Assembly: GCF_000485595.1 (NCBI RefSeq)
Contig: NW_014577075.1
Span: forward strand, 994,321-1,029,334
Length of the DNA: 35,014 nucleotides
Direction of reading: 5' to 3'
Source: Priapulus caudatus
Taxonomy: Eukaryota
Of this stretch, positions 4,201 through 33,733 are shown piece after piece (the stretch's first letter is position 1; each line of letters begins with the position of its first letter). Below the pieces are notes generated by a model that did no database searches, was not told the DNA's origin, and was given only the letters and a program-made list of their open reading frames with translations. The translations under genes were made by a program, and so were the position numbers.

Positions 4201-6789
4201 ACCATAGAGTGTAGCAGTTACTGATAAGACCAGGTAGAACTTTGAAATTCACAGCTGAAAAAATGACAAAGAATTAAAATTGTACACATATTATGTCCTT
4301 GTCTTATATAGATTGTGAGATTAACAAAATCTTGCAATATCATCGCATTCATGTCTCACACTTTATACAAGTGGCAATATGTACCCTATTCACGGACAAA
4401 TATATCATCTCTGTTGTATCGCAACACATGGCTGAACACGCCTTGAAATCTCATTCAAAAACTTAATGAGTTCCTGTTTCATTGTCCTATCCAACAAATG
4501 CTAATAAATTTACCTGGCACCTTATTAGATGTAATCACTTGCAACAACTATTGAGCCCTCTTCGTAAAGACACAGTACACGCGCTGGGCCTAAACACCGC
4601 CCTTTACGCACCTGAAGCAGAAATAACAGTATTAAGAGTTTTAAGTTTGGGGCTCGGAAGAAATACTTAATAGCATCTAGCATATAGACCTGGCTACATA
4701 TTAACCTGGGTTTTGCGAGAAAGTTGGTAGTTATATTGTATGTAAACTTACTTACTAAGTCACACTGAGTATTTTCAAAAGTGCACAGGATGGTTTTTGT
4801 TAACTTTCCTATCCAATAGTTTGGCGTATCATTTAGTAAATGGCTTATGAATCAGACTTCATATCCTAGGAACCACTTAATCAATGCATACTGCATAGCA
4901 TAAAATGAACACGACAATAGAAATATGACAATAGTTCGTAGATGAGCATATAAATATGGACTTTATAGATTTTTGTAGCCATGTAGAGTCTTGCGTAACT
5001 ACTTGGGCAAACATACATAAATACCGACATATTGGCGGTTCGCTCATGAAGTGTCCTTGTACCTCATCAAGCCTAGATCCGTGAAGTGTGATCAGGATTG
5101 GCTAGTATATATATTACTCCCTCACTGCATAGGAATAATTTAACCGATACCGCAATAAAACTTCTGATCTATCGAGCAGCATCACACGGTCTGTGCCTGC
5201 ACCTATATTTAGCATTACACTCACCTCACACTACTCACATTTTCACTCAACATTCATCTCTGCGCTACCATGGAGCACACCTTCAACTGAAGTTGATGTT
5301 TCCCCACGCTGCACTATCTGTCTCCATCTAACACCCAGTCTACACCAATCAGGCCTAAAACAGAAAGAAGCATATATACCCATTAATAGAAGCAGTACAC
5401 GTTAATAATCATAAGGTGAACAAGTGCTCTAAATGATAAGGAAAACTAAAAAAAAGAAACATTCCAAAAAAGCTCCTCACCACAAAACATGAATTTTCAT
5501 AGCATCTATGATCATTCATAATCATCTCTGGTTGTAATCCAGAGATTTCTATTTCCATATATTGAATATAACGATCCCACTAAAACTTGTTACACTTATT
5601 TCTTACCATTAGGATTGCATCACACGCACCATGCTATTAATATACGAACTAACCATATATATGTGATTATAGATAAATTTCTGTACATAAATTAATGACA
5701 TCAATAGCTAAACCTTCTCCACTATCATAGAATACAGATTCCCAAAATTCCAGCCTGCAGGTCGCTCATCTCCAGACATATCACCCTGTCCATATAAACG
5801 AACCATGCACAATCCATGTTCTGGCACCCAGTCACCGTCGTAGCAACACTGCCTGTCGTAATACCAACCCTCTACTCATAACAAATAAAGCCTCTTCTCC
5901 TTAATTAATAAAAAAAATCGACCGACACACTTGTAGGATGTATGGATGTCTCATGAGCTTAGTATAGCTCATAGGTCTATGTCGAGGGTACTACTGCCAA
6001 ACGTACCCTGGTACGCCGGTATACTCAGAACTTATCCTGGTAAACCTATATGAGGTTAGGTTAGATAGGTAAGATAGGCGTAGTCACTCCTAGACGCGTT
6101 ATGGAGTAGGCGAGTACGGCCCGCATATAGAATAGTACCAGGGTACATCCGATACCGGACCGAACAGGGTAACGTTTTTTTCTTTTCCGGCAGTACGCTG
6201 GAGGAATAGACCCTGCAGCCTAACTTAAGCCAATAGTCTTAATCCCCCAGGGTAACTGCGAGACGTACCCCTGTAACACTGAATGTTAGGTAGGGTTAGN
6301 NNNNNNNNNNNNNNNNNNNNNNNNCGTAATGTGTGTGTGTGTGTGGCATGTGTGTGCTGCTGTGTGTCGTGTGTCGTGTCGTGTGTCACAAGTGTGTGAT
6401 GTAGCGTGGTCGTTACAGTCTCTACCTGGGTCAGTTTTCCCTCCGTGTACATAACTACACAATTATTGTTCAAGTGTACAGACATAGACAGTATTCAAGT
6501 GCTACGCAAATCACGAGTCCCCACAGTTCCCGGAGAACCCCCTCTTTTAAAACGAGTCAGTTCCTTTATAGGCATTGCATTTCAACGAATCCTAGCTTCC
6601 GAGACCCCCATTTCGAACATAGCAGTTCCAGCAGTATCCCAATTCAACAAATAGTTCCAGAAGACCCCCAATTTCTAGGTCTGGTAGTTCCAGAGCGCCC
6701 TTTGTGAACCTTCGCAGTGGCGACAATAACCTACCCATATGTGGAGGTGAGTGCCCCCCCCCAACGTGACATGCTCGCATGCCATTGGC

Positions 6790-8300
6790 CGCGGGCCGCG
6801 ATGTGTGACTGGGTAGGGACATGGTCCGGGGAACCATCCGCGCGTGTGTGGACTGGGGAGGTGGACATGGTCCGGGCCGCGTGTGTGGACTGGGAGGTGG
6901 ACATGGTCCGGGCGGTGGTGTGGACTGGGAGGTGACATGGGTCCGGGACACGCGTGTGTGGACTGTTTGAGGTGTACTGATTCTGGGCCGCGGTGTGGAT
7001 GGGAGTTGGAGCATGGTCCGGGCCGCGCAGTTGGACTGGAGCTGTGTACATGTCCGGGCCGCGTGATGTGGACTGGGAGGTGGTACCATGTCCGGGCGCT
7101 GTGTGTGGACTGGGAGGTGGATCATGCGTCGGGCCGCGTGTGTGCGACTGGAGGTGCACATGTGCCGGGTCTGCGTGTGTGGACCTGGGCAGGGTACATG
7201 GTCCGGGCCGCTGTGTGTGGACTGGGAGGTGTACATGGTCCGCGGCCGCAGTGTGTGGACTGGGGGTGGACATGGTCCAGGCCCGCCAGTGCTGTGGACT
7301 GGGCCATGTACATGATACTGCGGCGCATCACCATAACCCGCATCGCGGCCCGCGTGTGTGGACTGGGAGGATGGTGTCCGGCCGGCCGTTGTGTGGACGG
7401 GCGGTGCACATGTCGGTCCGCGTGTGTGCGACTGGGAGGTGGAGCTGGTCCGAGCCGCCGTGTGTGCGAATATCGGAGGTGAGCATGGTCCGTGGGGGCC
7501 GCAGTGTGAATGACTGGGAGGTGGACTGCGTTCCAGGGCCGGCGAGTAGTGGCACTGAGGAGCGTGGACATGGTCCGGGCCGCGTGTGTGGCTGGGCCCG
7601 TGACATGGTCGGCCCAGCCGTGTGTGACTGGGAGGTGGACATGGTCCGGGCCGCCCGTGTGGTGGACTGGAGTGTGGACATGGTCGCGCGGGGCCGCTGT
7701 GTGTGGACTGGCAGAGTGGACATGGTCCGGGGCCGCCGGTGTGCTGGGACTGCGGAGGTGGACATAGGTCCCGGGCCGCTGCATGTGACTCGGCCTGTTG
7801 CACATGGCCCGGGCCGCGTGTGTGGAACTGGGAGGCTGGACATGCTGTCCGGGCCGCGCTACCACAGGACCCGCGCCTCCCTTGACCATCCCTGCGCAAA
7901 GGCTCCAGCAACCCAACCAGTGTGTGGGACTGGAGAGCCGTGCGACATGGTCGGCGATTGTGTGGACTGGAGGTGGACATGGTCCGGTGCCGCGTTGTGC
8001 TGGCTGGGCCGATGTACATGGTCCGGGCCGCGTGTGTGGGACTGGTGAGGATGATCATGGTCGGGGCATGCGGTTGGACTGGGCAGGACTCCGTGACACA
8101 TTGGTCAGGCCTGGGTCGTGGACTCGGCATGCCAATGGTCCGCGGCCACCCGTGTGTGGACTGGCGGCCTATTGTACATGGTGCCGGGCGCGGGGGTGTG
8201 GATTGGCGCCGTGTGACGATGCGATCCGGCCGCGGGCTGACTGGACTCGTTTTCCGTGCACATGGTCCGGGCGCGGGTGCTGCGACTGGGCCAATGCACA
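6790..8300. repeat. GC-rich 36-bp minisatellite, copy 1 (~40 units)
   Basis: Unit GTGTGTGGACTGGGAGGTGGACATGGTCCGGGCCGC with heavy indel noise. Confidence 0.95.
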
Positions 8301-8446
8301 TACGTGTCAGACAGTGGCAGCCGCCTTCTCGACGTAGTCGGCGTCCAGGAGCTACAGGACGGTCCCTTCAGTGGTAGGTTGTTGCTGGCCTTGCTGACGG
8401 CAGTGGCACCCGTGCGGCTTCGTCGCTATCTGATCGTTGACGGCCC

Positions 8447-12384: not shown

Positions 12385-13450
12385 CGCACGCACGCACGCA
12401 CGTACGCTACGCACGCACGCATGCACGCGACACAGAGGGAGGAGAGAAGAGAGTTTAAGAATGTGCGTAACTGCGTTTAGTTCAACAATGTCTTAATCAT
12501 AAAACCGAAGAATCTACATGATAGTTATTAGTGATCTTTAGTGATCAATCTTGCTTGCTAATGAGAGATATGTTCTACTTAAAGATTATTGTTGTAGGTC
12601 GAATGAATGCTGTTACATTTAGTTTACTCAAACGTGCCTGCAAATACCATCTCTGCTTCTCATTTTTGAATTTCTGGGAGACCCCCAGACCACCCGACCT
12701 GTGTGCTTACACATCCACTTGTACCCGCTAGCCTATCGGCCCCGGAAGTCTGATAGAGCCTAGGCTGCCCATTTTTTGCACTGTAACACTGCTATAGCAC
12801 CATTAAGACAATAAAACACTACTAGGTTAGGCTAGATTAGCATGTAGATGCGCCGATTCGCCCTGCACGAAATGACAGTGCCCCAGCAAGTTAGTCTGGT
12901 CTATATACTGCAATGACTAAAATAGTGGCTAGATGGTGCTTTTTTTAGACGAAGGAGTTTAAAGATTAGGCAATGACCAAGAAAAATAGGTAATGTAAAA
13001 CTATGTTCAACAGTGAGGAAAAAAAAACATGTAAAAGTGCATTATAGGTTATATCTTTTTAAGAAATTTTAGCCGACACCAATTTAGCGTGACGAGGCTC
13101 TTCAACGTCTGTGTTTCAACCGCTTGGCGTTAGGGGTCAATTTAGCTTGACTGATTGGGTTCACCAGCCGGCGAGCTTCCGCACGCGCAAACCACGTTCC
13201 CGACCTGATGGCGACTGCCTCCCCCAGGGGAGGAGGGCCACTCCATATTATTGCATGGTGAGTAGTGCCGCGGAGGGATCCCATGATTTTCAACCCTTTA
13301 AACTTTTCCGTTGCCGTGCTTCGCATTTTTAAGATTATCTCGTTACCAGGGCGATCAAAGTTTAAGTTACCATGAGATCTTACATTTTTGCCGTTCCGGA
13401 GACCTAGTTTTAATATTCCGTTCAGGGCTCGTCTTCAGAATACGTTGACG
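12385..13450 (+). repeat. Indel-rich duplicate of ~135-1200
   Basis: Collinear match (gagtttaagaatgtgcgtaactgcg ... gaccta gttttaatattcc) with frequent 1-nt indels. Confidence 0.9.
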
Positions 13451-15555
13451 CGTAATGTGTGTGTGTGTGTGGCATGTGTGTGCTGCTGTGTGTCGTGTGT
13501 CGTGTCGTGTGTCACAAGTGTGTGATGTAGCGTGGTCGTTACAGTCTCTACCTGGGTCAGTTTTCCCTCCGTGTACATAACTACACAATTATTGTTCAAG
13601 TGTACAGACATAGACAGTATTCAAGTGCTACGCAAATCACGAGTCCCCACAGTTCCCGGAGAACCCCCTCTTTTAAAACGAGTCAGTTCCTTTATAGGCA
13701 TTGCATTTCAACGAATCCTAGCTTCCGAGACCCCCATTTCGAACATAGCAGTTCCAGCAGTATCCCAATTCAACAAATAGTTCCAGAAGACCCCCAATTT
13801 CTAGGTCTGGTAGTTCCAGAGCGCCCTTTGTGAACCTTCGCAGTGGCGACAATAACCTACCCATATGTGGAGGTGAGTGCCCCCCCCCAACGTGACATGC
13901 TCGCATGCCATTGGCCGCGGGCCGCGATGTGTGACTGGGTAGGGACATGGTCCGGGGAACCATCCGCGCGTGTGTGGACTGGGAGGTGGACATGGTCCGG
14001 GCCGCGTGTGTGGACTGGGAGGTGGACATGGTCCGGGCCGCGTGTGTGGACTGGGAGGTGACATGGGTCCGGGACACGCGTGTGTGGACTGTTTGAGGTG
14101 TACTGATTCTGGGCCGCGGTGTGGATGGGAGTTGGAGCATGGTCCGGGCCGCGCAGTTGGACTGGAGCTGTGTACATGTCCGGGCCGCGTGATGTGGACT
14201 GGGAGGTGGTACCATGTCCGGGCGCTGTGTGTGGACTGGGAGGTGGATCATGCGTCGGGCCGCGTGTGTGCGACTGGAGGTGCACATGTGCCGGGTCTGC
14301 GTGTGTGGACTGGGCCGTGTACATGGTCCGGGCCGCGTGTGTGGACTGGGAGGTGGACATGGTCCGGGCCGCGTGTGTGGACTGGGAGGTGGACATGGTC
14401 CGGGCCCGCCAGTGCTGTGGACTGGGCCATGTACATGATACTGCGGCGCATCACCATAACCCGCATCGCGGCCCGCGTGTGTGGACTGGGAGGATGGTGT
14501 CCGGCCGGCCGTTGTGTGGACGGGCGGTGCACATGTCGGTCCGCGTGTGTGCGACTGGGAGGTGGAGCTGGTCCGAGCCGCCGTGTGTGCGAATATCGGA
14601 GGTGAGCATGGTCCGTGGGGGCCGCAGTGTGAATGACTGGGAGGTGGACTGCGTTCCAGGGCCGGCGAGTAGTGGCACTGAGGAGCGTGGACATGGTCCG
14701 GGCCGCGTGTGTGGCTGGGCCCGTGACATGGTCGGCCCAGCCGTGTGTGACTGGGAGGTGGACATGGTCCGGGCCGCCCGTGTGGTGGACTGGAGTGTGG
14801 ACATGGTCGCGCGGGGCCGCTGTGTGTGGACTGGCAGAGTGGACATGGTCCGGGGCCGCCGGTGTGCTGGGACTGCGGAGGTGGACATAGGTCCCGGGCC
14901 GCTGCATGTGACTCGGCCTGTTGCACATGGCCCGGGCCGCGTGTGTGGAACTGGGAGGCTGGACATGCTGTCCGGGCCGCGCTACCACAGGACCCGCGCC
15001 TCCCTTGACCATCCCTGCGCAAAGGCTCCAGCAACCCAACCAGTGTGTGGGACTGGAGAGCCGTGCGACATGGTCGGCGATTGTGTGGACTGGACGTGGA
15101 CATGGTCCGGTGCCGCGTTGTGCTGGCTGGGCCGATGTACATGGTCCGGGCCGCGGGTGTGGGACTGGTGAGGATGATCATGGTCGGGGCATGCGGTTGG
15201 ACTGGGCAGGACTCCGTGACACATTGGTCAGGCCTGGGTCGTGGACTCGGCATGCCAATGGTCCGCGGCCACCCGTGTGTGGACTGGCGGCCTATTGTAC
15301 ATGGTGCCGGGCGCGGGGGTGTGGATTGGCGCCGTGTGACGATGCGATCCGGCCGCGGGCTGACTGGACTCGTTTTCCGTGCACATGGTCCGGGCCGCGG
15401 GTGTGGACTGGGCCATGCACATTGTCCAAGTGGCAGCGCCTTTCTCGACGTAGTCGGCGTCCAGGAAGCTACAGACGGCCTTCATGTAGGTGTTGCTGGG
15501 CCTTGCTGACGGCAGTGCACCCGTGGGCTCTCGGTCATCCTGATGTTGACGGCTG
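13451..15555 (+). repeat. Near-identical duplicate of 6325-8445
   Basis: Identical from cgtaatgtgtgtg onward; identical ORFs at 6406 and 13532. Confidence 0.93.
13917..15420. repeat. GC-rich 36-bp minisatellite, copy 2
   Basis: Same unit; nearly identical to copy 1 including irregular units. Confidence 0.95.
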
Positions 15556-16516: not shown

Positions 16517-17463
16517 NNNNNNNNNNNNNNNNNNNNNNNNNNNNNNNNNNNNNNNNNNNNNNNNNNNNNNNNNNNNNNNNNNNNNNNNNNNNNNNNNNNN
16601 NNNNNNNNNNNNNNNNNNNNNNNNNNNNNNNNNNNNNNNNNNNNNNNNNNNNNNNNNNNNNNNNNNNNNNNNNNNNNNNNNNNNNNNNNNNNNNNNNNNN
16701 NNNNNNNNNNNNNNNNNNNNNNNNNNNNNNNNNNNNNNNNNNNNNNNNNNNNNNNNNNNNNNNNNNNNNNNNNNNNNNNNNNNNNNNNNNNNNNNNNNNN
16801 NNNNNNNNNNNNNNNNNNNNNNNNNNNNNNNNNNNNNNNNNNNNNNNNNNNNNNNNNNNNNNNNNNNNNNNNNNNNNNNNNNNNNNNNNNNNNNNNNNNN
16901 NNNNNNNNNNNNNNNNNNNNNNNNNNNNNNNNNNNNNNNNNNNNNNNNNNNNNNNNNNNNNNNNNNNNNNNNNNNNNNNNNNNNNNNNNNNNNNNNNNNN
17001 NNNNNNNNNNNNNNNNNNNNNNNNNNNNNNNNNNNNNNNNNNNNNNNNNNNNNNNNNNNNNNNNNNNNNNNNNNNNNNNNNNNNNNNNNNNNNNNNNNNN
17101 NNNNNNNNNNNNNNNNNNNNNNNNNNNNNNNNNNNNNNNNNNNNNNNNNNNNNNNNNNNNNNNNNNNNNNNNNNNNNNNNNNNNNNNNNNNNNNNNNNNN
17201 NNNNNNNNNNNNNNNNNNNNNNNNNNNNNNNNNNNNNNNNNNNNNNNNNNNNNNNNNNNNNNNNNNNNNNNNNNNNNNNNNNNNNNNNNNNNNNNNNNNN
17301 NNNNNNNNNNNNNNNNNNNNNNNNNNNNNNNNNNNNNNNNNNNNNNNNNNNNNNNNNNNNNNNNNNNNNNNNNNNNNNNNNNNNNNNNNNNNNNNNNNNN
17401 NNNNNNNNNNNNNNNNNNNNNNNNNNNNNNNNNNNNNNNNNNNNNNNNNNNNNNNNNNNNNNN
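16517..17463. other. Assembly gap (947 N); smaller gaps at 6300-6324 (25 N) and 20945-20954 (10 N)
   Basis: Runs of N. Confidence 1.
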
Positions 17464-20865: not shown

Positions 20866-21123
20866 AGAGAGAGGAGGGTGTAATAGAGAGGAGGGTGTGA
20901 TAGAGAGGAGGGTGTGATAGAGAGGAGGGTGTGATAGAGAGGAGNNNNNNNNNNCGATGCGAAAGTAGTGCTAGCATTGGTTGTAGTCGCGATAGAGCTC
21001 TGTGTGGGATGAAGGTGAACCAGAGCGTGTACGCGTAGGTAGATGTGACGCGGTACCCACAGCAGATTGACGCAGAAGATGAGAACCATGCATGCAAGCG
21101 ACCTCCTTCCTTGCCTCCACCTG

Positions 21124-21172
<49 letters not shown>

Positions 21173-21640
21173 GGCGTAATAGAGAGGAGGGTGTGATAGA
21201 GAGGAGGGTGTAAAAGAAGAGGAAGATGTCATAGAAGAGAAAAATGACAACCATACGAGCGAGGCTTCTTCCTTGCCTCCACCTGCAAGAGAGAGAGGAG
21301 GGTGTGATAGAGAGGAGGGTGTGATGGAGAGGAGGGTGTAATAGAGAGGAGGGTGTGATAGAGAGAAGGGTGTGATAGAGAGGAGGGTGTGATAGAGAGG
21401 AGGGTGTGATAGAGAGGAGGGTGTAATAGAGAGAAGGGTGTGATAGAGAGAAGGGTGTGATAGAGAGAAGGGTGTGATAGAGAGGAGGGTGTGATGGAGA
21501 GGAGGGTGTAATAGAGAGGAGGGTGTAATAGAGAGGAGGGTGTAATAGAGAGGAGGGTGTGATGGAGAGGAGGGTGTGATAGAGAGAAGGGTGTAATAGA
21601 GAAGAGGGTGTGGTAGAAGAAAGGTGTGATATAGGACAAA
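20866..21640. repeat. 18-bp minisatellite (AGAGAGGAGGGTGTGAT/AAT-type) with (GA)n tract, interleaved with GPCR exon-start copies
   Basis: Direct tandem repetition at 20866-20944 and 21178-21640; (GA)n at 21126-21168. Confidence 0.93.
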
Positions 21641-22124
21641 TATACGAACCATGCGAGCGACCTTCTTCCTTACCTCCACATGCAACTGCAAGAGAGAGGA
21701 AGAGAGGAATATATAGTAGAGGAAGGTGTATAACGAAGAAATTGATGTAATAAAGGATGGTGTGATAGCGGAAATATATTAAAGAGGAAAGTGGGATATA
21801 GGAGGAATATATTAGACAATGAAGATGAGAACCATGCAAGCGACCTTCTTCCTCGCCTCCATCTGCAAGAGAGAGGTTAAAAATGAGTTAATTTCCACTG
21901 GAAGACGGTTTATACATATTTCAATTTCTACTAAACTATGGGTTAAAATGGTTGCATTTCAAACAGAAAATACTGTAAAAATTTACGCTCATTTATAATA
22001 GCGTTAATTTTGCGCACAACGCGCGCGTTAAAATCACACACAATGCGCCAATAACGGTAAAACCTTGCAAAAAACCGCGCGTAAAACAGTCACATTGCCT
22101 ATTAATTGTTAGTAAATAAAAACA

Positions 22125-24490
22125 GACAGATCTATTCATGCACACGTGCCGGATACCACCACCAAAGAAAATTATCTTGGCAGTCAACGGTGACCTAGAG
22201 TCCCTCAATAATTATATAAAGGGACTCTACGCGGGGACCGAGCGAGCGTGCGAGCAAAGGGAATATTATAGATCGGATTTTGTCATGCAACATGTTGCTG
22301 GCTTGCCCGCGACCAGTTTCAACGTATGATAACGGCAGAAGAAACTTATCGTGGCAGTCAACGGTGACCGACGCACGAGCGCTATCTCCATGCACATTTA
22401 TAGCATAGCCAGAATCCGGCAACGGATGCTGCGAGCAAAGGGAATATTATAGATAGGATTTCATCATATGTGCCGTACGTCGGCCCGCCCGCGACCAGTA
22501 TTAACGTATGAGAACGGCTGAAGAAGATTATCTTGGTAGTCAACGGCGACCGACGTCCGTGTGCCATTTTCATGTACATTAGCATAATGCGGAAGCCGGC
22601 GCGCGATGCTGCGAGCAAAGTGAATATTGTAGAACGGATTCATGTATCAAAAACTTCAATATTGTAGAACGGAACCATGTGCACCTGTCGTCGGCCCGGC
22701 CGCGGCCAGTTTTAACGTATGAGATTGGCAGTATGTTGATGGTGGCCAATATAGCGTAGAAGTAAAAGTAGAGATCGGCCGAAGAAAATAATCTTGACAG
22801 TCAACGGCGACCGACGTCCGAGTCCGTCTGAGCGTCGTTTTCATTGTAAGGTGTATACCGTCACGTACGAGTCGAAGCCATTCTATGGGATTCTACAGGA
22901 TTCACACTCAGCCTACAACCTAGGATTCCCGGCAAGCCAGGCAAGGCCACGGCTGCCAGCGTATATAAAGACCGCCTGGGATCGACTCGGGGTGCTTCAT
23001 TCTACCAGACGGCCAGGAGAACCGACCGTGTAAGGATCCAACCCTTACATTTTGGCGCAGTCGACAGGATAGTAGTGGTGTGAACTGGTTCGTTGCGTAC
23101 GTAGAGTGGAGGCCCTGGACAACAAGCTGTACATCAAGCTGTACATCAAGCTAAGTACCTTCTCCAGTATGGGTATCGTAAAGTGTTCGTTGATAAGCTA
23201 GGAGACGTATTGTATATGGCGCACGTAGCGTACAAGATTCAAATACATAATGTGATAGATATAGCACTGGGGTGGCGAAAGACCCTTAGGTCATCAAAGT
23301 CTGCCACCCCTGTACAGTAGGTCTGTCAGCTGAGTGTCAAGCCCGCGTGTTTGTCGCTCAGACTCGTGTATTCACTTTACTCAACACCTCCGTCGTGTTT
23401 GAGGGTTGTTTTTTTGCAGTCAGTCGCGTGTGGTAGCGAATTAGCTTTCAACTGTACTAACGGTAGATAAGGAGATAGGTACGATAGTTGTTCAGTAGGT
23501 GGCGCAGTAAGGCATGTTACAGTAGTATTATGAGTCGTGTATTTCGTTGGTTTTGGCATGTTTTGAGCGTTTGTTTGAGGTTTTGGCATGTTTGAGGCTT
23601 GTTTGGAACTCCCCCTGCGGAGTTGTTTGGGACTTCCCCCGGGGAGTTTGATGGGTCTTTTCCCGTGGGGCTAGTTCGGGTATCCCCCGTTTGGGTTGAT
23701 ACTGTCATTGACACTGGCGGTGCTTCTCCAACCCGGCAAGGCATTGGGTAGAAAGGGTATATTACAGTCGTACGTCTCGGGGGATCATAAGGTTTGGGAT
23801 TTTCATTTGTCGGACTTACAGTTTGCTTTGAACTCCGCGAAGCATGATACGACTAGGCACACGCCGGCTGAAATTTTTCTAGGCCGTAAGTTGTGTTCTT
23901 ATTTTGACCTCCAGTTGGGGGGGGGGAGGAGAGAGTTTCGAACCCGCGGTACAAGCGGAAAAAGGCCAAGCAACGGGCCGCACGGGTCAAATGTAAATAC
24001 GTCCAAGTGAATGCATAACTCGGCAGGGGAAGAGCAAAATATCCTGCCAGTTATGCGCGAACGATTGTGCTGCGCTATGAGCAAGGGTAGCAGCAGCACA
24101 TAACCACATGCTATGAGAAGTGTGATACGGTTGGCATTACAGACTCTCCTCCGGGACACTGCTTCGAAGGAGGGGAGAGTGTAAGGTGTATACCGTCACG
24201 TACGAGTCGAAGCCATATTCTACGGGATTCTACAGGATTCACACTCAGCCTACAACCTAGGATTCCCGGCAAGCCAGGCAAGGCCACGGCTGCCAGCGTA
24301 TATAAGGACCGCCTGGGATCGACTCGGGGTGCTTCATTCTACCAGACGGCCAGGAGAACCGACCGTGTAAGGATCCAACCCTTACATCATGTACATTAGC
24401 ATAGGTCGGAACTGCTATGTGGCGCGATATGCTGTGAGCAAAGTGAATTTTGTAGATCGGATTTTACCATGCACACGTGCCGTCCAAACG
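22125..24490. repeat. Diverged ~180-bp tandem repeat (~4 units) interrupted by the LTR element
   Basis: Motifs TATCTTGGCAGTCAACGG(T/C)GACC at ~22172, 22347, 22530, 22791 and GAGCAAAG(G/T)GAAT at ~22252, 22433, 22613, 24436. Confidence 0.85.
22845..24386 (+). mobile_element. Internally deleted (non-autonomous) Ty3/Gypsy LTR retrotransposon
   Basis: LTRs at 22845-23049 and 24180-24386 (TGTAAGG...CCTTACA; differ by 2 substitutions and a 2-bp indel). 4-bp TSD TCAT. PBS TGGCGCAGTCGACAGGAT (tRNA-Ser-like). PPT GAAGGAGGGGAGAG. Integrase fragment WDFHLSDLQFALNSAKHDTTRHTPAEIFLGR at ~23795-23890. Confidence 0.95.
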
Positions 24491-24679
24491 GTTTACAACA
24501 GTTCATACGCTCCGTTTATAATAAAAATAAGCGTTACAATGTACCGCCTCATTCGCTGGGCGGCGCCACCATGCATGCATTGCGCAAGTCTACCGTCCGA
24601 CCGCCTTCGCAAAATATTATCGGTGAGAAACTGCCGGCTAGCTATATCCGTCTATATTTTGCGGGTCTCACTGTGAAAG

Positions 24680-24866
24680 ATGTCGTCTGCCGATGTACAG
24701 AGAGAATTTGACGTGGTTATTTTCGGTGCCACCGGTTTTACCGGCCAATTTGTCGTCGAAGAAATTGCTCGCGTGGTGCAGAAGGAACATGGCATAAAGT
24801 GGGCAATAGCTGGTCGAAACAAATCCAAGCTAGAGACTGTTTTAAAACAAGCTTCTGAAGTAGTTG
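24680..24866 (+). CDS. SCCPDH: SCCPDH exon 1
   Basis: MSSADVQREFDVVIFGATGFTGQ...AIAGRN; donor G|gtacgt. Confidence 0.93.
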
Positions 24867-27800
24867 GTACGTAAAACTGTCCCGCCCACGGGCCACGGCC
24901 ACAGGCACAGGCACAGGCTTGGAACGTTTCAATAGTAATATTATGGTAAATAATCTACTCTCTTTCAGTTTTACCTATTATTGCCGACAATTTCCTGTAA
25001 ATGCCGTCCAAATGCTCATCTGCAATGCTTGTCCGTTGTCGGCAATAATAGGTGAAAGAGAGTAGAGAAATGTTTCTTAAATTTTATTGAAACGCTCCAA
25101 GTGCCTGTGCCGCAACACACGTATACCGTACACGGTACCGCACTCACGCCGCTGTGCACAAACATCAAGAATAAAGCGACTCCCACAGCGGCGTACGTAT
25201 GCAAGCCAGGCGAAGATTTTCGTAGCAAATACATTTTGCGTGTATTTACCATCATTTTACTATTGAAGCGTTCCAAGTTCTTGTGGTCCCGGTCGCCCTT
25301 CTTCGCATGCAACGTCCATATATTTATGTGTACGCCTATTTTGAATATTTGGTACAAAAACACGCTTTCTTGTTTACAGGGAATGATGTCACTGGCACGT
25401 CCATCATCATTGCAGATGTTGCGGATGAGGAATCATTGCTCTCCATGTGTAGGCTCACCCGTATGATCCTAAACTGCGTTGGACCGGTTTGTATTGCAGT
25501 TGAAAGCTTGTAATTTAGTGGACACATTCCAACCTTTTGCACAGTTTTGATGCAGTCTAACCCTGTGATCAACATCATGTGGGTCAGGTGATTCATGTGT
25601 GTATCACGCACGTAGTACAGCAAGCTGGGCTTTGCAATGTAATCATTATAGTAATCGGGCGCGTAGCTAACTCATTTTGTGTGTGTGTGGGGGGGGGGGC
25701 AAAGCCACGTGTGTGGTGTGTTTTGGGGAGGTGACCGCCATCGACCACATATTGTATCTACTTTTTTTCTGGGGGGGGCAACTGCCCCTTGCCCCCCCCC
25801 CCTGCTAGCTACGGCCCTGGTAACGATATAAACATAAGAGTTTCAATACTATTTCGTATGTCTACTCCTGGTATAATCACATTTAGCTCGTATGTTTTAA
25901 TGGCGAATTTAACTGGATAGAATACGAATGCCATGTTGATTCAGATGTTGACCTGTATTTCAGTATCGCTTTTTTGGAGAGCCAGTTGTCAAAGCCTGTG
26001 TGGAGGCAGGGTCCCATCACCTTGATATAAGCGGGGAGCCACAGGTAATGTGGAACGTACATATCACAATAATATATCAACAAATAGACAACGCATATAT
26101 ACATCTGTGAGATCATGTGGTTTTCATTATCCATACCTTCAAGAAGTTGACGTTAACCTGTAACCATGTCTGCGAGATACTACGCCTATCGATCCATGGA
26201 ACGTTAGAACGTCTTATCATAGCAAAGCTTGCCTAGAGGCATCTGGCAATCATGGCAGGGAGATTGCGTGACTGCCTTTAACAATGTAGCCCAGTGTGTA
26301 ATCTCACACGTGTTGTAGTTTATAGAGACGATGCAGCTGAAGTATCATGACGCGGCGCAGAAGGCTGGATGCTACATCATCAGCACCTGTGGATTTGACA
26401 GCATACCTGCCGACCTGGGAGTCATCTTCACCAGAGACGTGTTCAAAGGTATGCTGGCTATATCAAGCTAGATCCTCTCTTAACGTATTCCCGCTCATTA
26501 TCTTCACTGCAGCATACGAAACGTACGTTATATATCTACTAAACCAGTTACACTACCATTGATGAAACATGCACCATGAAAAGTTTTGGGTGCTTCCTTG
26601 GAAATACAGTGTATAATTAACAAAATTTAATGTTTTTATTATGAAGGAGATCTGAACTCCATAGAGGCTTACCTCAGTATAAACACTGGGCCAGAGGCAA
26701 GTAGAATATTTACATCTTCTCGGTTATCAATCTGTAGCATTTAATATATCACAAAAGCAACTAGACATGTTTTGGAATACATGATACTTTCTCAGACTGT
26801 TTGGTTTTGACAGACAGCAAATTTTTCAACCCACTTCTCTGTGAATATTTATGTCTAATCTGAGTGGGAGAAGTTTGAAATTTATAATATATATTTAATA
26901 CTTGATATCCATGTTATCATATTATAACTATACAAAAGCCTATTAGTAGTCCACATAATTAGTTTAATTACAATGAGCTATGGTTTATTCATATATGCCC
27001 GTTCCCTAGGAAAGTTCTTGTTTATGTGTTGGTTCTGTCTATCCTCATGCCAGGGAGGATCATGGAATTATGGAACGTATCAGACAGCTATACATTCTGT
27101 ACCCCATACCAGAGATGAGCTACTGTTTGGCAAGAAGTTAGTTTCTTATGAAGTCCCCCCACCTGCCCATAAGGCGACGAAAAGGTAACAACGAACACTA
27201 GGTCAACGCGAACCATCAAGCATGCCTTTGCTGTTAGTAATGACACCGAAAAAGTAACAAACGCTCGCACTGGTGTAGCGTACAATGATCAGTGCTGCCG
27301 AATAGCAGATGTCATGTCTGGGGGTATGTCTGGTAAGAGCTGGGGGTGGTGGGGGGGATACAGCAATGAACAGGGAATGTAATGTTAGAGTTGTAGGAAT
27401 TCCAAAATACAACAGTGAACAGGGAATTTAAAGTGAGAGTTAGAGGAATACCAAGATGCAACAATAAGCAGGGAATGTTAGGTAAGAGTGTTGGGGAATA
27501 CAAGAATATAACAATAAATGGAATTTCAGGTGAGAGTGGGAGGGTGGGATACAAGAATACAACAATAACTAGGGAACATCAGGTGAGAGCAAGGGCATAC
27601 AACAGTAAGTGTTGAATAGTTGTTTACTAACTGCCAAGGCATGTTCGATGGTCGCTCGATCCCATGATCTCATCTCGCGCACCTTCATTCCATTTTCTTA
27701 TGCGTCTAGGGAGGCGGCGGTCACTACGCTACGTATGAGTCGGCCATTCACGGGTTTGCGTCTGTCAAAGAGTTGTCGGCACTGAGGAAAACCCTATTCG

Positions 27801-30800
27801 TTAAACCTCTGCCAAAGCCAGCCCACAGACTGCAGAGAAGGTACAGCCAGCATAGCAAGAGATAGAGGGGTGCTGGTACTCTGATGTGATCGGGGACGTA
27901 TTCGTCCCGCACGGATGCTCGCGCCACGCACCGATGTTGCCATGGTGACCTTCATGTGTGTGATTCTTGCAGGCCGCAATTGTTTCGCGGGGAGAGGGTT
28001 GGAAGCGACTGGTGCGTTCACTTCCAGGGAGCAGATCGCTCCGTCGTGCAGAGGACACAGAGGTTCAACTACGAGCAGCTTAAAGAGCGGCCGGTACGCC
28101 CCAGTTCATAGATGTAATCGTAACGCGGAGAAGCGTGCAGAATTAGTCGACCTATTAGCCGTTCATGTGCGTGTGAGCTGACCAGGCTATATCCTCTCCA
28201 ATGCGGTCGGTCAAGCGCACACAGATTGTACGTGCATATTTGGACGCCAAAGTGTTGGCTTCGCGGCACTTCGTTGTTAAGCATAGTTTTTAGAGTCTGC
28301 CTATGCCTGCACTTATTGGCTAGAGTTGTCTGTCGATCAGCCAGGCGAATATTAGGATTGCAGCAGCTCACCTGATTGTATAGTATGCTGTTATAGATAC
28401 ATTTGTAGTGTGGAAGCCAAGGCCATCCTTAAAAAATTATATGTTTGCTGTCCTCCGACCGACCCACGAAAATAGCCGCGACCCAAAAGTTTTTTTTTAC
28501 ATTTTGGGTTCCATATTTTTAACATTTTTTTACATTTTTTTTTTACATTTTTCATAATTAAGACTGAAACACAAAGCATGTGTGGCAAACATGAGGACAG
28601 ACTTAAAAGAACTATTATGCCTCACAAAAAAGAAGACCTACCTACCTACCCACTAAAAAAATCATGGGTCGGAGGACAGCAAACATAGAATTTTTTAAGG
28701 ATGGCCCAAATGCAAAACCAACTGTTATTGTGCATACAGGGCGTCCGATTCAGTTGTAATTACAGTGGAAGTAAGATCACACTCGGTCACGCCAACTCAG
28801 TCGGTAGCTTAGCAGTGGTTAGTACGCAGTCCGTACGTGAAATGTGCACTTGATTTTCAGGTGCAGTTCAATCCATTTGTGAGGATTTCCTCCACATTCT
28901 GGCTTGTCATCATTGCACTCATGACCACCATCTTCTCCCTGCTCGCAAACTTTAGCTTTGGAAGAAGCCTGCTGGAAAAGGTGAGCATGTTGTCTGGGAA
29001 CTGTTGACACCGAGGTGTAATGGCCACGGGCACGCTGTCAGAAACAAATTTTTTCATTCCCTTAGGTGTGCAATGTTTCTGTTTACAGTATGAGAGAAAA
29101 AGTCAATGTTAAGACTGGCATTTGGAATAATTTTGTTTTTGAAAACTGGCCCCTGGATGCTATTCCAGAGAGAACGGGACACGCATTGAGAAAACGTTGG
29201 AGTTGGCTAGTCGTTTCTGCTTTTTCGTGTCATGTCGATGATAATATGGGTCAAGACGTCAAGGTTAATTGTAATTACCTCCGCCCAACGGAGTTGGAGG
29301 AGGTTATGGTTTCGCTATTGTGTGTTCGTGTGTTCGCGCGATCGATATTAGCGCGGCGGTCGATCGATATCACCCAGCGAGCCAGCGAGGCAGCAAGCAT
29401 GTCGCTGGCGGAGGTATGCACTCTGTGAGTGCACTCTGTCTAGTTCATATTTGTAACAAGTGTTCCTCTTGTACGGTTTACAACGATTGCTTGTGACCAT
29501 TGAAGGAAATCATGTTTATTACTTAATTTCATTATAAATAATATCATTACTGAACTATCTGTGTGAATAGCTAGAATTATATTTTATACCTGTCTTATTT
29601 GTTACAGTTGCCTGATTCTAATATAGTTCTCCTGTATATCTCTAGGCATAAGGCATGAGTGTGGCGCAGTGCCACATTAAAGCTAATTACATTATTGATG
29701 GAGTGATTGCAGTGTAGTGATTCACGTTGTATTTGGCAAGTTGACAACTCACTGTTTCTTTATTATTAGTACCCCAAGATATTCACTCTCGGATATTTCA
29801 GCCACGAAGGTCCCACGAAGAAGCAGGTTGGTTATCCTTCACTTTTGGCAGGTGTACATTTCATGTAGAAACGGTAGAAGTGCATAATAGTCAATAGTTG
29901 TTGATAATTATAAATAACAGGCATATCAAATACATATATGCACTACTGCATGGTCATCAAACGGGATTGTGTGTAACAAAACGTGGAAACAAGAAAACAG
30001 CGACAAGTTCTTAGGTTCTTGTTTTCCATGCCTGCAGATTGAGGGTTCCTCCTTCTCCTGGCATTTTGTCGGGGAGGGATACGAAACGAAGATCGCGGAT
30101 CCTGACCAGCAACACGATGATAAGCCGTCAAAGATGATTGAAACACGAGTGTGCGGGCCGGGTATGTGTTCTCGACGCTCGTGACAGAGTTGCCGTACCG
30201 TTCTAGAACGTTACCGTTGACAACGTAACATTTTTTTGAAATGAAAGTATGTGACCATTGATTTATACAATGATTCGATGAATCGATTTGTACTCGATCA
30301 CCGATTGATGGTCTTTCATCGAAGGTTTTGTAGATGGATGCACTGCAGAAACTATCATTTTCCTGTTATGGTTGCTCGCCGACTTCTAATAGTGCAACTG
30401 TTTTACTTTGGTAGGAATATATATTACGATTGAAGTGAATATGATGCAAGTCATCCAACTATACTCTTATTCACATCACCAGTTAGTGTTCCTGTTCATA
30501 CTGCATATTGTTCATTATATTATGTCACTGTCTTTAAATATGATTGTGATTGTGTTGCGTGCACAGAGCCAGGATATGTTACCACCCCTATCTGCCTGGT
30601 CGCTGCCGCCATGACAGTTCTAAAGGAAGCCGAAAAAATGCCACTCGAGTAAGTATATGCATTATGCACCTTGAAGGACTGTTTCAGACTACTAAATGCC
30701 TGCAGCAGTTTACACGTATTTAGTTTGCCAGAGACCTGACAAAAAGGAATAATCTTTTGCCATTTTTGCATGTATGTAATGTGAAATTCCGTTTCGTTTA

Positions 30801-30904
30801 TTCCCCTCTGCAGTGGTGGAGTGCTGACCCCTGGTGGTGCATTTAGAAAGACGTCGCTGCGTGACAGACTCACTGAGGCTGGCATGAAGTTTGAGAAGCT
30901 GTAG
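24680..30904 (+). CDS. SCCPDH: Saccharopine dehydrogenase-like oxidoreductase, 12 coding exons, 426 aa: join(24680-24866,25380-25486,25964-26044,26319-26448,26647-26696,[27054-27184 or 27710-27840],27973-28093,28861-28980,29770-29826,30038-30161,30567-30648,30814-30904)
   Basis: Rossmann motif FGATGFTG, then LNCVGPYRFFGEPVVKAC, DISGEP, CGFDSIPADLG, PGYVTT and GGVLTPG. All intron phases are compatible and the exons sum to 1281 nt ending in TAG. Confidence 0.95.
25380..25486 (+). CDS. SCCPDH: SCCPDH exon 2
   Basis: Acceptor tttacag|; IIIADVADEESLLSMC...LNCVGP; donor |gtttgt. Confidence 0.92.
25656..25819. mobile_element. hAT-type MITE in SCCPDH intron 2
   Basis: Ends GGGCGCGTAGCTA...TAGCTACGGCCCTG with subterminal GGGGGCAA/TGCCCC motifs; no clean TSD. 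Confidence 0.6.
25964..26044 (+). CDS. SCCPDH: SCCPDH exon 3
   Basis: Acceptor tttcag|; YRFFGEPVVKACVEAGSHHLDISGEPQ; donor |gtaatg. Confidence 0.93.
26319..26448 (+). CDS. SCCPDH: SCCPDH exon 4
   Basis: Acceptor ttgtag|; FIETMQLKYHDAAQ...CGFDSIPADLG; donor |gtatgc. Confidence 0.93.
26647..26696 (+). CDS. SCCPDH: SCCPDH exon 5 (GC donor)
   Basis: GDLNSIEAYLSINTGPE then GAG|gcaagt; the 50-nt length restores phase 0. Confidence 0.87.
27054..27184 (+). CDS. SCCPDH: SCCPDH exon 6A (alternative, predicted mutually exclusive)
   Basis: cag|GGSWNYGTYQTAIHSVPHTRDELLFGKKLVSYEVPPPAHKATKR|gtaaca; 131 nt, stop-free, homologous to 6B. Confidence 0.82.
27208..27655 (+). promoter_or_regulatory. Long-range intronic RNA stem (arms 27208-27240 and 27624-27655) between SCCPDH exons 6A and 6B, covering branch point TACTAAC 27625-27631
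   Basis: GCGAACCATCAAGCATGCCTTTGCTGTTAGTAA is complementary to TTACTAACTGCCAAGGCATGTTCGATGGTCGC: 29 pairs (one G-U), 3 mismatches, 1 bulge. Confidence 0.72.
27365..27610 (+). repeat. Degenerate ~50-bp purine-rich tandem repeat (~5 units) in the loop of the intronic stem
   Basis: Recurrent motif AGGGAAT...GTGAGAGT...GGAATACAAGAATACAACA. Confidence 0.7.
27710..27840 (+). CDS. SCCPDH: SCCPDH exon 6B (alternative, closer to the family consensus)
   Basis: tag|GGGGHYATYESAIHGFASVKELSALRKTLFVKPLPKPAHRLQRR|gtacag; 131 nt. Confidence 0.9.
27973..28093 (+). CDS. SCCPDH: SCCPDH exon 7
   Basis: Acceptor ttgcag|; ...WCVHFQGADRSVVQRTQRFNYEQLKERP; donor |gtacgc. Confidence 0.9.
28421..28706. mobile_element. 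PIF/Harbinger-type MITE in SCCPDH intron 7
   Basis: ~40-bp TIR GGCCATCCTTAAAAAATT(A/C)TATGTTTGCTGTCCTCCGACC; flanked by 3-bp direct repeat CAA. Confidence 0.85.
28861..28980 (+). CDS. SCCPDH: SCCPDH exon 8 (hydrophobic segment)
   Basis: Acceptor ttttcag|; VQFNPFVRISSTFWLVIIALMTTIFSLLANFSFGRSLLEK; donor |gtgagc. Confidence 0.92.
29770..29826 (+). CDS. SCCPDH: SCCPDH exon 9
   Basis: tag|YPKIFTLGYFSHEGPTKKQ|gttggt. Confidence 0.92.
30038..30161 (+). CDS. SCCPDH: SCCPDH exon 10
   Basis: cag|IEGSSFSWHFVGEGY...TRVCGP|gtatgt. Confidence 0.92.
30567..30648 (+). CDS. SCCPDH: SCCPDH exon 11
   Basis: cag|EPGYVTTPICLVAAAMTVLKEAEKMPL|gtaagt. Confidence 0.93.
30814..30904 (+). CDS. SCCPDH: SCCPDH exon 12
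   Basis: cag|GGVLTPGGAFRKTSLRDRLTEAGMKFEKL*. Confidence 0.93.
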
Positions 30905-32715: not shown

Positions 32716-33733
32716 CAGGGGCGTAGCCAGTATGTAGCACTGTAGGCCCGGCCCTATACTTTTTTTGGCCAAGTTATCTTTTTTTTAAACACCTATAATT
32801 CAAATCCATAAGCTTGCTGGACGAGTTTAAAAGTCTAGACAGGAAAAACTATTGAAATGAACGTAGCAAGAATGTGGCTAAATTAGGTGACCTATTCTTC
32901 TGTCATCTAGGCCTAACGCCTCATGGTTGAATGAACAACCATGGCAAAGGTACTCTGCTAGTAAAGACGGTGTTTACTGTTGTTACTGTCGTTTATTCGG
33001 TACCGGCGGTAGTGGTGAAGCGGATCACAGCCTGTGAGTGACTGGAAAAACATTTCTCTTATGATTAAGAGGCACCTAAAATGTAAGGCCCATCTAACAA
33101 ACACTGTCAAAGCAGAGAGTTTCCTGTCTGTATCACTTGGTAAACAAAAAGATGTACGTAGTCAGTTGTCATCAGCTTTTTCAAAGCAAATAGAACGTAA
33201 CCGTAAAATCATATCTAGCATACTCGATGTAATCATTCTTTGTGGTAAACAGAACATACCATTAAGAGGTAGAACCGAAGACAGAAGCAATTTTATGGCT
33301 CTGATCAATTTCCATGCTAAGGCTAACCCTGTCCTTGAACAGCATTTTGCCAATGCACCCAACAATGCTAAATATCTGTCACCACATATACAAAATGAAT
33401 TGATTGAGCTTTGTGGAGAACAGATAAAGGATACCATTGTAAAAGATTGTAATGATTCTGTTTGCTTCGGCTTGATGGCTGATGAGGCTACCGATTGTGC
33501 AACACTTGAGCAAGTTGCAATGTGTGTTAGATTTGTACAAAGGAAAACAAACAATATCGCAGTATGTGAAGTTTCTTGGCTTCAAAGATGCGTGTTCAAC
33601 TACAGGTGAAGCCTTAGCAAACCAGTTCTGCCAAACACTAGATGAGTGTGGCATCAATGCCAATAAGATGAGAGCCCAATGCTATGATGGGGCCTCTAAT
33701 ATGAGCGGAAAGTATTGTGATGTCCAGCCCTAG
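32716..33733 (+). mobile_element. Truncated hAT DNA transposon with frameshifted transposase (ZMYM1/THAP12-like, DUF4371-type)
   Basis: Left end CAGGGGCGTAGCCAG. W..YSASKDGVYCCYCRLF zinc-finger-like motif. ORF 33034-33609 with CGKQNIPLRG, NAKYLSPHIQNELI, LMADEATD, QVAMCVRFV, then a frameshift to KFLGF...RAQCYDGASNMSG. Confidence 0.88.

Follow-up and report, generated by a model that had tools for sequence, protein, structure and literature searches.

The window analysed here, a 35,014-nt (35-kb) stretch of the Priapulus caudatus genome, carries in its 3' third the gene for SCCPDH, a saccharopine dehydrogenase-like oxidoreductase (Table 1). The gene model matches the RefSeq proteins XP_014667897.1 (isoform X1, with exon 6B) and XP_014667904.1 (isoform X2, with exon 6A). 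Exon 1 matches PF03435 slightly below the cut-off, and a search for solved structures returned just two distant N-terminal matches, with exon 6 outside both. The peptides encoded by exons 6A and 6B are 33% identical. A message that includes both exons meets its first stop at codon 254 and one that includes neither at codon 222, compared with codon 427 normally. Double inclusion and double skipping thus each lead to a premature stop, the frame arrangement of mutually exclusive exons (MXE) that are backed by NMD.

Table 1. Features of the SCCPDH gene and of the intron between exons 6A and 6B (positions in the window).
Feature	Positions	Strand	Remarks
SCCPDH coding span	24680..30904	+	12 exon positions; 426 aa with either exon 6; frame intact
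Exon 5	26647..26696	+	followed by a GC (non-GT) donor; RNA joint 26694>27708
Exon 6A	27054..27184	+	131 nt; divergent copy; RNA depth in 3/3 raw-read runs
Arm 1	27208..27240	+	predicted extension 27201-27244; one GCATG; starts at intron position +24
Probable decayed tandem copy of 6A donor and arm 1	27247..27313	+	offset 69 nt; weaker cryptic donor at 27254
Degenerate purine-rich tandem array	27347..27593	+	49-nt period; most of the loop
Arm 2	27624..27655	+	predicted extension 27619-27662; one GCATG
TACTAAC, candidate distal branch point	27625..27631	+	A27630 at -80; 446 nt from the 6A donor
AG-free zone, pyrimidine tract and 6B acceptor	27639..27709	+	AG positions and proximal adenines in the text
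Exon 6B	27710..27840	+	131 nt; family-typical copy; joints 5>6B and 6B>7 in reads and one contig
Exon 7	27973..28093	+	exon model; RNA joints
Intron-7 MITE (positive control)	28421..28706	+	40-nt terminal repeats; CAA target duplication; high copy

Both versions of exon 6 are covered in three raw RNA runs, of which about half each was examined, for a total of 66 million reads with lengths of 51-52 nt. Summed over the three runs, the depth of 6A and 6B is 0.89 of the mean depth of exons 4, 7 and 8. The share of 6A is 0.37, 0.19 and 0.54 by run and 0.34 when pooled, values that derive from about 4-18 reads per exon per run. The joints listed are 5-6B, 6B-7 and 7-8; at this low depth, none for 5-6A, 6A-7 or 6A-6B rises above the listing threshold. 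At the joint that leaves exon 5, three letters fit either side, and the RNA reads place a GC..AG splice to exon 6B there. The contig set differs from 6B at 0 positions. With two 131-nt homologues, the annotated isoforms X1 and X2, and a summed depth of 0.89, the locus has the makeup of tandemly duplicated mutually exclusive exons. We conclude that 6A and 6B are a real either/or pair; because no 6A joint lies above the listing threshold, this conclusion rests on depth and annotation rather than on junction counts. Frameshift and NMD alone could enforce the exclusivity.

The two copies differ greatly in how well they fit the family. Exon 6B scores 100.3 against the profile and 6A 11.6, the minimum among 97 relatives being 41, and several near-invariant residues are gone from 6A. 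The score of 6A is nevertheless far above that expected from neutral decay (mean -83): of 20000 simulations run, 3106 kept an open frame, and none of these reached it. Identity by codon position is 19, 26 and 14 of 43 for positions 1, 2 and 3, respectively. Exon 6A is thus under purifying selection, which makes control of its inclusion worthwhile. Relatives of the 6A peptide are scarce. Of six candidates in one search, a single protein was a relative, SCCPDH isoform X2 of the window itself at 100%, whose cluster also contains X1 and X3, both with 6B; there was none among short proteins. Three repetitive proteins that matched the 6A peptide in a 1.84-billion scan were discarded as spurious.

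The 525-nt intron that separates the two exons contains two complementary arms 383 nt apart. The first-pass annotation had described them as a 29-bp stem whose first arm starts 24 nt after the 6A donor, and we find both statements to be correct. The ungapped core (27212-27240 with 27624-27652) comprises 25 Watson-Crick pairs, one G.U pair and three mismatches over 29 positions; the outer three pairs (27208-27210 with 27653-27655) and one bulge bring the full helix to 29 pairs. The predicted energy of the arm duplex is -40.6 kcal/mol, or -47.0 kcal/mol with the predicted extensions. The stem is beyond chance: its score of 21.0 compares with a shuffle mean of 11.5 (sd 1.3) and is reached by none of 300 dinucleotide shuffles. 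Significant inverted repeats occur in three of the 12 introns of the gene (1, 6A-6B and 7), those in introns 1 and 7 outscoring the one studied here, and the other nine are not significant (60 shuffles each). The core holds one G.U against one A.C, so that a strand bias is absent.

Most of the loop consists of repeats. The tandem array is called by TRF at 27358-27537 with a period of 49 and 3.7 copies, and its five units are 57-80% alike. The probable tandem copy of the 6A donor and arm 1 has a seed with 13 of 14 positions identical, and no shuffle in 2000 reaches the local score that includes this seed. Beyond the seed 32 of 53 positions are identical, a level reached by 115 of 5000 shuffles in the global and 207 of 2000 in the local comparison, and by 27 of 810 empirical windows.

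The heptamer TACTAAC does lie inside arm 2, as had been noted. The 3' end of arm 1 is its exact complement, and the top eight pairs of the stem, all of them Watson-Crick, span the motif including A27630. Across the 12 introns it is the sole perfect match in the last 120 nt. On the plus strand of the window the heptamer is found three times against 2.7 expected; by chance it would fall into an 80-nt 3' window with a probability of 0.6% per intron, or 7% over 12 introns, and inside an arm with a probability of 10%. The AGs near the 3' end of the intron are those at 27604, 27608, 27618, 27637 and 27708, with no others; the last one before the acceptor AG follows A27630 by 7 nt, a spacing that fits a distal branch site. 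The stretch from 27639 to the 6B acceptor is therefore free of AG, as claimed before, but it is ordinary for this gene: the first upstream AG is at -73, and three of the 11 other introns have longer zones (-104, -107 and -82). Distant branch points have been defined, in the part of PMC1431707 that we draw on, as at least 100 nt upstream with an AG-free zone of at least 100, and the values here, -80 and -73, fall short of both. Three weak candidates lie closer to the acceptor, A27664 (-46), A27672 (-38) and A27689 (-21).

Mutually exclusive splicing can follow from a linear distance of less than 50 nt between donor and branch point (PMC5740500). At 446 nt, linear steric exclusion of 6A-6B joining is out. 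The folded intron differs: along the single strand outside the helix, the path from the 6A donor is predicted to be 31, 39 and 56 nt to the adenines at -46, -38 and -21, respectively, and 17, 25 and 42 nt with the extended helix.

Whether the stem appears in predicted structures depends on how much of the intron is folded. The first-pass annotation had proposed to fold the intron against shuffled controls, and this check is negative. The fold of 27185-27709 has an energy of -126.7 kcal/mol (z +0.51), 71 of 100 shuffles being as stable. The single long-range stem that the arm pairing predicts inside this inter-exon intron is absent from the minimum-energy structure of the whole intron; the fold that contains it is 5 kcal/mol higher, and at temperatures of 5-37 C the whole intron forms the stem with a probability close to 0. 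The stem is missing because the free pyrimidine tract, the last 20 nt, pairs with the loop repeats. For transcripts that end between 27656 and 27690 the stem probability is 0.98-1.0, and for an end at 27695 it is 0.04. It is 0.98-0.99 if the tract is kept unpaired, 1.0 without the repeat array, and 0.77 without G.U pairs. The rival helix between tract and loop has three other partners within 1-2 kcal/mol and is probably compositional. Together with the stem it would form a pseudoknot, which is beyond the model of the folding program. A search of Rfam with E values up to 5 gave only two chance matches far below the cut-offs, so there is no snoRNA or other known RNA in the sequence searched.

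We tentatively put first, with a confidence that stays a little below an even chance, the explanation that the stem is a single, non-competing clamp, which likely masks the strong branch point and leaves a shorter path from donor to branch point, with NMD as a backup. The stem would form once arm 2 is transcribed and would persist while protein occupies the pyrimidine tract. U2 would be denied the strong branch point, and the donor path to the two nearest weak adenines would be cut to 31-39 nt (17-25 nt with the extended helix), less than the minimum of 42 nt modelled for yeast. Splicing of 6A and 6B to exons 5 and 7 would remain possible, for instance across the 1 kb from exon 5 to 6B or from 6A to exon 7, and no second structure would be required. 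A weakening of the 6B acceptor would bring the divergent 6A into about one third of messages, and NMD would likely clear the double-exon 6A-6B message. A constant clamp is favoured by the non-random stem, by the lack of a rival partner for either arm among the windows of the gene, by the high stem probability in transcripts that end by 27690, by the purifying selection on 6A and by a folded path below the yeast minimum for two of the three weak adenines. The candidate at -21 retains a path of 56 nt, spliceable by the yeast rule, which counts against the clamp. Further evidence against it comes from the whole-intron fold, from the stronger repeats in two of the 11 other introns (one of them a MITE), from the ordinary AG-free zone, from the lack of a strand bias in the core, from the possibility that the frameshift by itself accounts for exclusivity, and from the modest tandem-copy clock (p about 0.02-0.03 beyond the seed and 0.10 for the local score).

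An alternative explanation, which we take seriously as a possibility without considering it probable, is that the inverted repeat is a neutral relic, derived either from the end of an old transposon with few copies or from a local duplication in inverted orientation. If this were the case, then splice-site competition and NMD would give the exclusivity, and TACTAAC would be an ordinary branch point or a chance occurrence. The presence of inverted repeats in three introns, the absence of the stem from the whole-intron fold and the 10% chance of a heptamer in an arm are in line with this explanation, as is the premature stop that follows from both joint inclusion and joint skipping, a frame property reported for 60% of human MXE clusters in the relevant passage of PMC5740500. 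The arms also resemble the terminal inverted repeats of a MITE, which enclose a short non-coding stretch (33-nt arms, 383-nt interior), but they are only about 85% complementary.

However, the search for further copies in RNA reads gave no sign of a high-copy MITE. The MITE in intron 7 was detected with a depth of 42- to 214-fold per bin in three raw-read runs, and its two tips both show loose ends among the rows listed; just five reads sufficed to pick up a small repeat near 28277. In contrast, the bins over arm 1 were empty in all four runs (three raw RNA runs and one contig set), the bin near arm 2 held about two reads in one of the four, and no extra arm copies were seen in the 66 million RNA reads at 85% likeness, in one contig set or in the 35-kb window; RNA reads sample transcribed DNA only, and members of an old family at about 85% identity might be missed in part. 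In a metagenome scan, a 20-base piece of arm 1 had one match, located between bacterial-type genes and with no further likeness, which we attribute to chance. At the ends of the helix, matches that could represent a target-site duplication comprise just two to three letters, all inside the helix, whereas the control MITE shows CAA at its exact ends. Moreover, arm 1 is identical to the complement of arm 2 at 30 of 37 positions and to its own probable tandem copy in the loop at 23 of 37. The arms are thus less diverged than the internal repeats, the opposite of what an untouched insertion would show. This modest alignment suggests that the pairing was maintained, or that arm 2 is a later local inverted copy. 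That the stem exactly spans the one perfect branch motif likewise fits poorly with a neutral relic.

A bolder form of the clamp, which we consider unlikely, is that a constant stem without competitor turns the 525-nt intron into an unspliceable pseudo-micro-intron. Arm 1 would then act as a built-in anti-U2 for the seven branch-point bases, the path to the other adenines would be too short, and the loop would be free to grow by repeats, with both exons still usable.

The first-pass annotation had proposed that the stem acts as a structural switch for 6A versus 6B. In a two-state version, the closed stem would lead to 6A, whereas the open stem would let U2 bind at A27630 and lead to 6B, the state being set by a protein (e.g., a GCAUG binder of the RBFOX type) or by the helix between tract and loop. 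We find this improbable, even though several parts of the proposal stand: the exons are an either/or pair, the stem is not due to chance, and the best branch motif is covered. The predicted loss of the stem as the transcript grows from 27690 to 27695 and the range of the 6A share across the three samples (0.19-0.54) could reflect two states, although the latter derives from the few reads per exon given above and the alternative helix becomes weaker without G.U pairs and might coexist with the stem. A perfect TACTAAC also suggests that the motif is used. GCATG occurs at 27220 and at 27639, and FGFR2 uses a stem together with Fox sites (PMC2471395, in the passage concerned); however, the two arm copies are not independent, GCATG is present 10 times in the 6.2-kb gene, and TGCATG is absent near exons 6A and 6B.

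The search for a second partner of the arms speaks against the switch. Among 584 sixty-base windows of the gene, the best partner of each arm is the other arm (-30.3 and -32.1 kcal/mol); the next-best partners reach -17.0 and -16.1 kcal/mol, a gap of 13-16 kcal/mol. In the intron before 6A, the best arm partner reaches -8.4 kcal/mol, in the top 9% of the 584 windows, and the best candidates for silencing 6A when the stem is open (-8.4 to -10.3 kcal/mol) rank in the top 9-10% only. A pairing of the 6A acceptor region with the region of donor and arm 1, considered as an ATE1-like R1, was rejected at this same rank of top 9-10% only. The 6B acceptor region pairs with the 6B-7 intron at -38.3 kcal/mol, but unrelated partners give -37.3, -37.2 and -36.1 kcal/mol, and this pairing is not specific. 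The intron flanks of 6A and 6B show no significant homology, 24 of 300 and 35 of 300 shuffles reaching the observed levels. Since this search of the gene gave no second arm partner, a two-state switch is not supported, nor are designs of the docking/selector type, in which at least two elements compete for one site, or of the ATE1 type. A constant clamp or a ratio-setter fits better.

Finally, we regard as very improbable that the stem works as a zipper, bringing the 6A donor near the 6B acceptor and promoting 6A-6B joining into a decay-bound message that tunes the level of SCCPDH: stems between donor and branch point do aid splicing in yeast (PMC12350175, part of the text) and the linker to the -21 candidate, 56 nt, lies within the 42-85 nt range, but the best branch motif is buried in the stem, two of the three proximal candidates are less than 20 nt from the helix, and the summed depth of 6A and 6B is about one exon's worth with no 6A-6B joint among those listed, although decay would hide such a message.

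Control of either/or exons by an inter-exon stem is of a known kind, and the stem discussed here likely helps to keep 6A and 6B unjoined. The FGFR2 IAS2/ISAR stem sits in the intervening intron. Like the priapulid intron, FGFR2 has a single stem between either/or exons; there, the stem and Fox-type GCAUG activate the upstream and repress the downstream exon (PMC2471395), and the geometry of the priapulid stem would predict the same direction, with the upstream exon favoured and the downstream exon repressed. The FGFR2 stem has been tested experimentally and is cell-type specific, and in that passage of PMC2471395 a cover of the branch point is not described. In human ATE1 (PMC7797038), the pairing R3R4 joins an element in the inter-exon intron to one upstream of the second exon, hinders the 3' splice site and favours the first exon, which is similar to the arrangement in Priapulus. 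In contrast, ATE1 carries before its first exon a homologous element, R1, that competes with R4 for R3, and the ATE1 elements are conserved across vertebrates (PMC7797038); we found no such competitor in the SCCPDH gene. Models for Dscam1 and 14-3-3zeta rest on competing docking/selector pairings as well (PMC6071210, partial text).

Steric hindrance combined with RNA structure is already published for the Drosophila Dscam exon 17.1/17.2 cluster; to judge from its title, that study joins the same two ideas, RNA structure and a steric block between donor and branch point, in a two-exon cluster (Yue et al. 2013, cited in PMC7969005). In Priapulus, with a linear donor-to-branch distance of 446 nt, a block could arise only from the fold. 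The exons 4a/4b of OGDH share in kind with the priapulid pair a duplicated length that is not a multiple of three, a distant branch point and an accessibility set by a hairpin (PMC7969005, excerpt). In OGDH-type genes the branch points are near the donor in the linear sequence and the length of the intron is restricted (same excerpt of PMC7969005), whereas the priapulid intron has grown by repeats in the loop. Zipper stems in yeast join the donor region to the branch-point region and loop out the rest (PMC12350175, same part), a layout also found here. The rule derived for them asks for a linker of 42-85 nt and a stem that ends at least 20 nt before the branch point (PMC12350175, same part); a branch at A27689 would fit this rule, whereas one at A27630, A27664 or A27672 would not. 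The arms in Priapulus, at +24 to +56 and at -86 to -55, are close to the positions of conserved intron stems in Drosophila, which average +60 and -80 (PMC2724269, partial text). The stem described in PMC12772994 follows the second exon, and exclusivity is not explained there. In the literature, searched by listings, we found no account of the SCCPDH exon 6 pair; supplementary catalogues of predicted either/or exons could list SCCPDH.

Exon 6 is variable in other animals as well. In a survey of 20 protein clusters, in which 19 pairs were compared, equal-length X1/X2 isoforms differ only in the exon 6 segment in all eight mollusc species with such pairs (four Mytilus, Littorina, Argopecten, Pecten and Mizuhopecten). 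The X1/X2 pair of Limulus has no substitutions, and among oyster-type Logan members just scattered alleles are seen. The amphioxus isoforms swap the exon 8 segment instead. In a tree of 43 columns the copies group by lineage, with support of 96/92 for Mytilus, 94/86 for the pectinids and 93/86 for Littorina with Babylonia; most other forks are unresolved, and 6A sits on a very long branch. This grouping suggests separate duplications, or homogenisation, and from the sequences it seems that the duplication of SCCPDH exon 6 took place independently in the priapulid and in at least three mollusc lineages.

A neutral stem would only add another inverted repeat to the introns of a genome rich in repeats. 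If it is functional, then the control of either/or exons by RNA structure extends to Priapulida, in a simple two-element case that achieves exclusivity without competing pairings, a point that is open for several two-exon clusters according to the accessible part of PMC12772994. Separate duplications would provide natural replicates of which locking device (short intron, stem or decay) evolves after exon duplication, and if the pseudo-micro-intron reading is true, the duplications in mussels, scallops and periwinkles would show whether clamps recur. That this exon was duplicated repeatedly suggests that the region is tuned, in an enzyme of which little is understood.

The exon 5 donor of the SCCPDH gene (the saccharopine dehydrogenase-like oxidoreductase), which lies immediately 5' of the either/or exon pair 6A/6B, is of the GC type, and the rest of its consensus is near-perfect. 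Within the loop of the stem in the 6A-6B intron, a short stretch is a probable decayed tandem copy of the 6A donor together with arm 1, the 5' strand of that stem; read-through of 6A to the cryptic donor in this copy would lead to an immediate stop. According to the RefSeq annotation, the first exon of X3, the third isoform and a carrier of 6B, substitutes for the N-terminal nucleotide-binding motif.

Features in and around SCCPDH (window positions)
Feature	Position	Strand	Remarks
Duplicated block pair, 87%	133-1251 and 12385-13512
Duplicated block pair, 98%	6325-8444 and 13451-15553
Purine-rich tandem array	21204-21692		17-nt unit, ~20 copies
Short non-coding LTR element	22846-24387		~290 nt upstream of SCCPDH start
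X3 upstream ATG and alternative first exon	24571-24626		RefSeq annotation
Nested inverted repeats, intron 1	24910-25285
Exon 5 GC donor	26697-26698	+	5-6B joint in RNA reads confirms
Probable tandem duplicate (69 nt, decayed) of 6A donor plus arm 1	27247-27313		inside loop
MITE, intron 7	28421-28706		40-nt terminal repeats, 3-bp target duplication
Open frame with DUF4371 match	33019-33606		E 2e-12

The MITE in intron 7 is high-copy and heavily transcribed, and the nested inverted repeats of intron 1 likely represent two related MITE-like elements. The LTR element has TG..CA ends, terminal repeats of 206-208 nt that are 98% identical, a 4-bp target duplication, and stretches resembling a primer site and a purine tract. 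The DUF4371 open frame is probably the remnant of a broken hAT-type transposase, a class to which we take DUF4371 to be linked. The duplicated blocks are near-identical, contain a GC-rich satellite (36-37 nt) and adjoin assembly gaps (N at 6300-6324, 16517-17463 and 20945-20954); some of them may be assembly artefacts.

Equal-length SCCPDH isoforms from four species of Mytilus, from Littorina and from three scallops carry different versions of the segment corresponding to exon 6 (P0018, P0025, P0030, P0050 and P0127-P0146, set against 27054-27840).

In amphioxus SCCPDH, the 40-aa exon 8 segment exists in two versions, one hydrophobic and the other more polar, and one model carries both in frame (P0027, P0060, P0068, P0101, P0082 and P0097, set against 28861-28980).

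The copies of exon 6 cluster lineage by lineage, which suggests that this SCCPDH exon was duplicated repeatedly.
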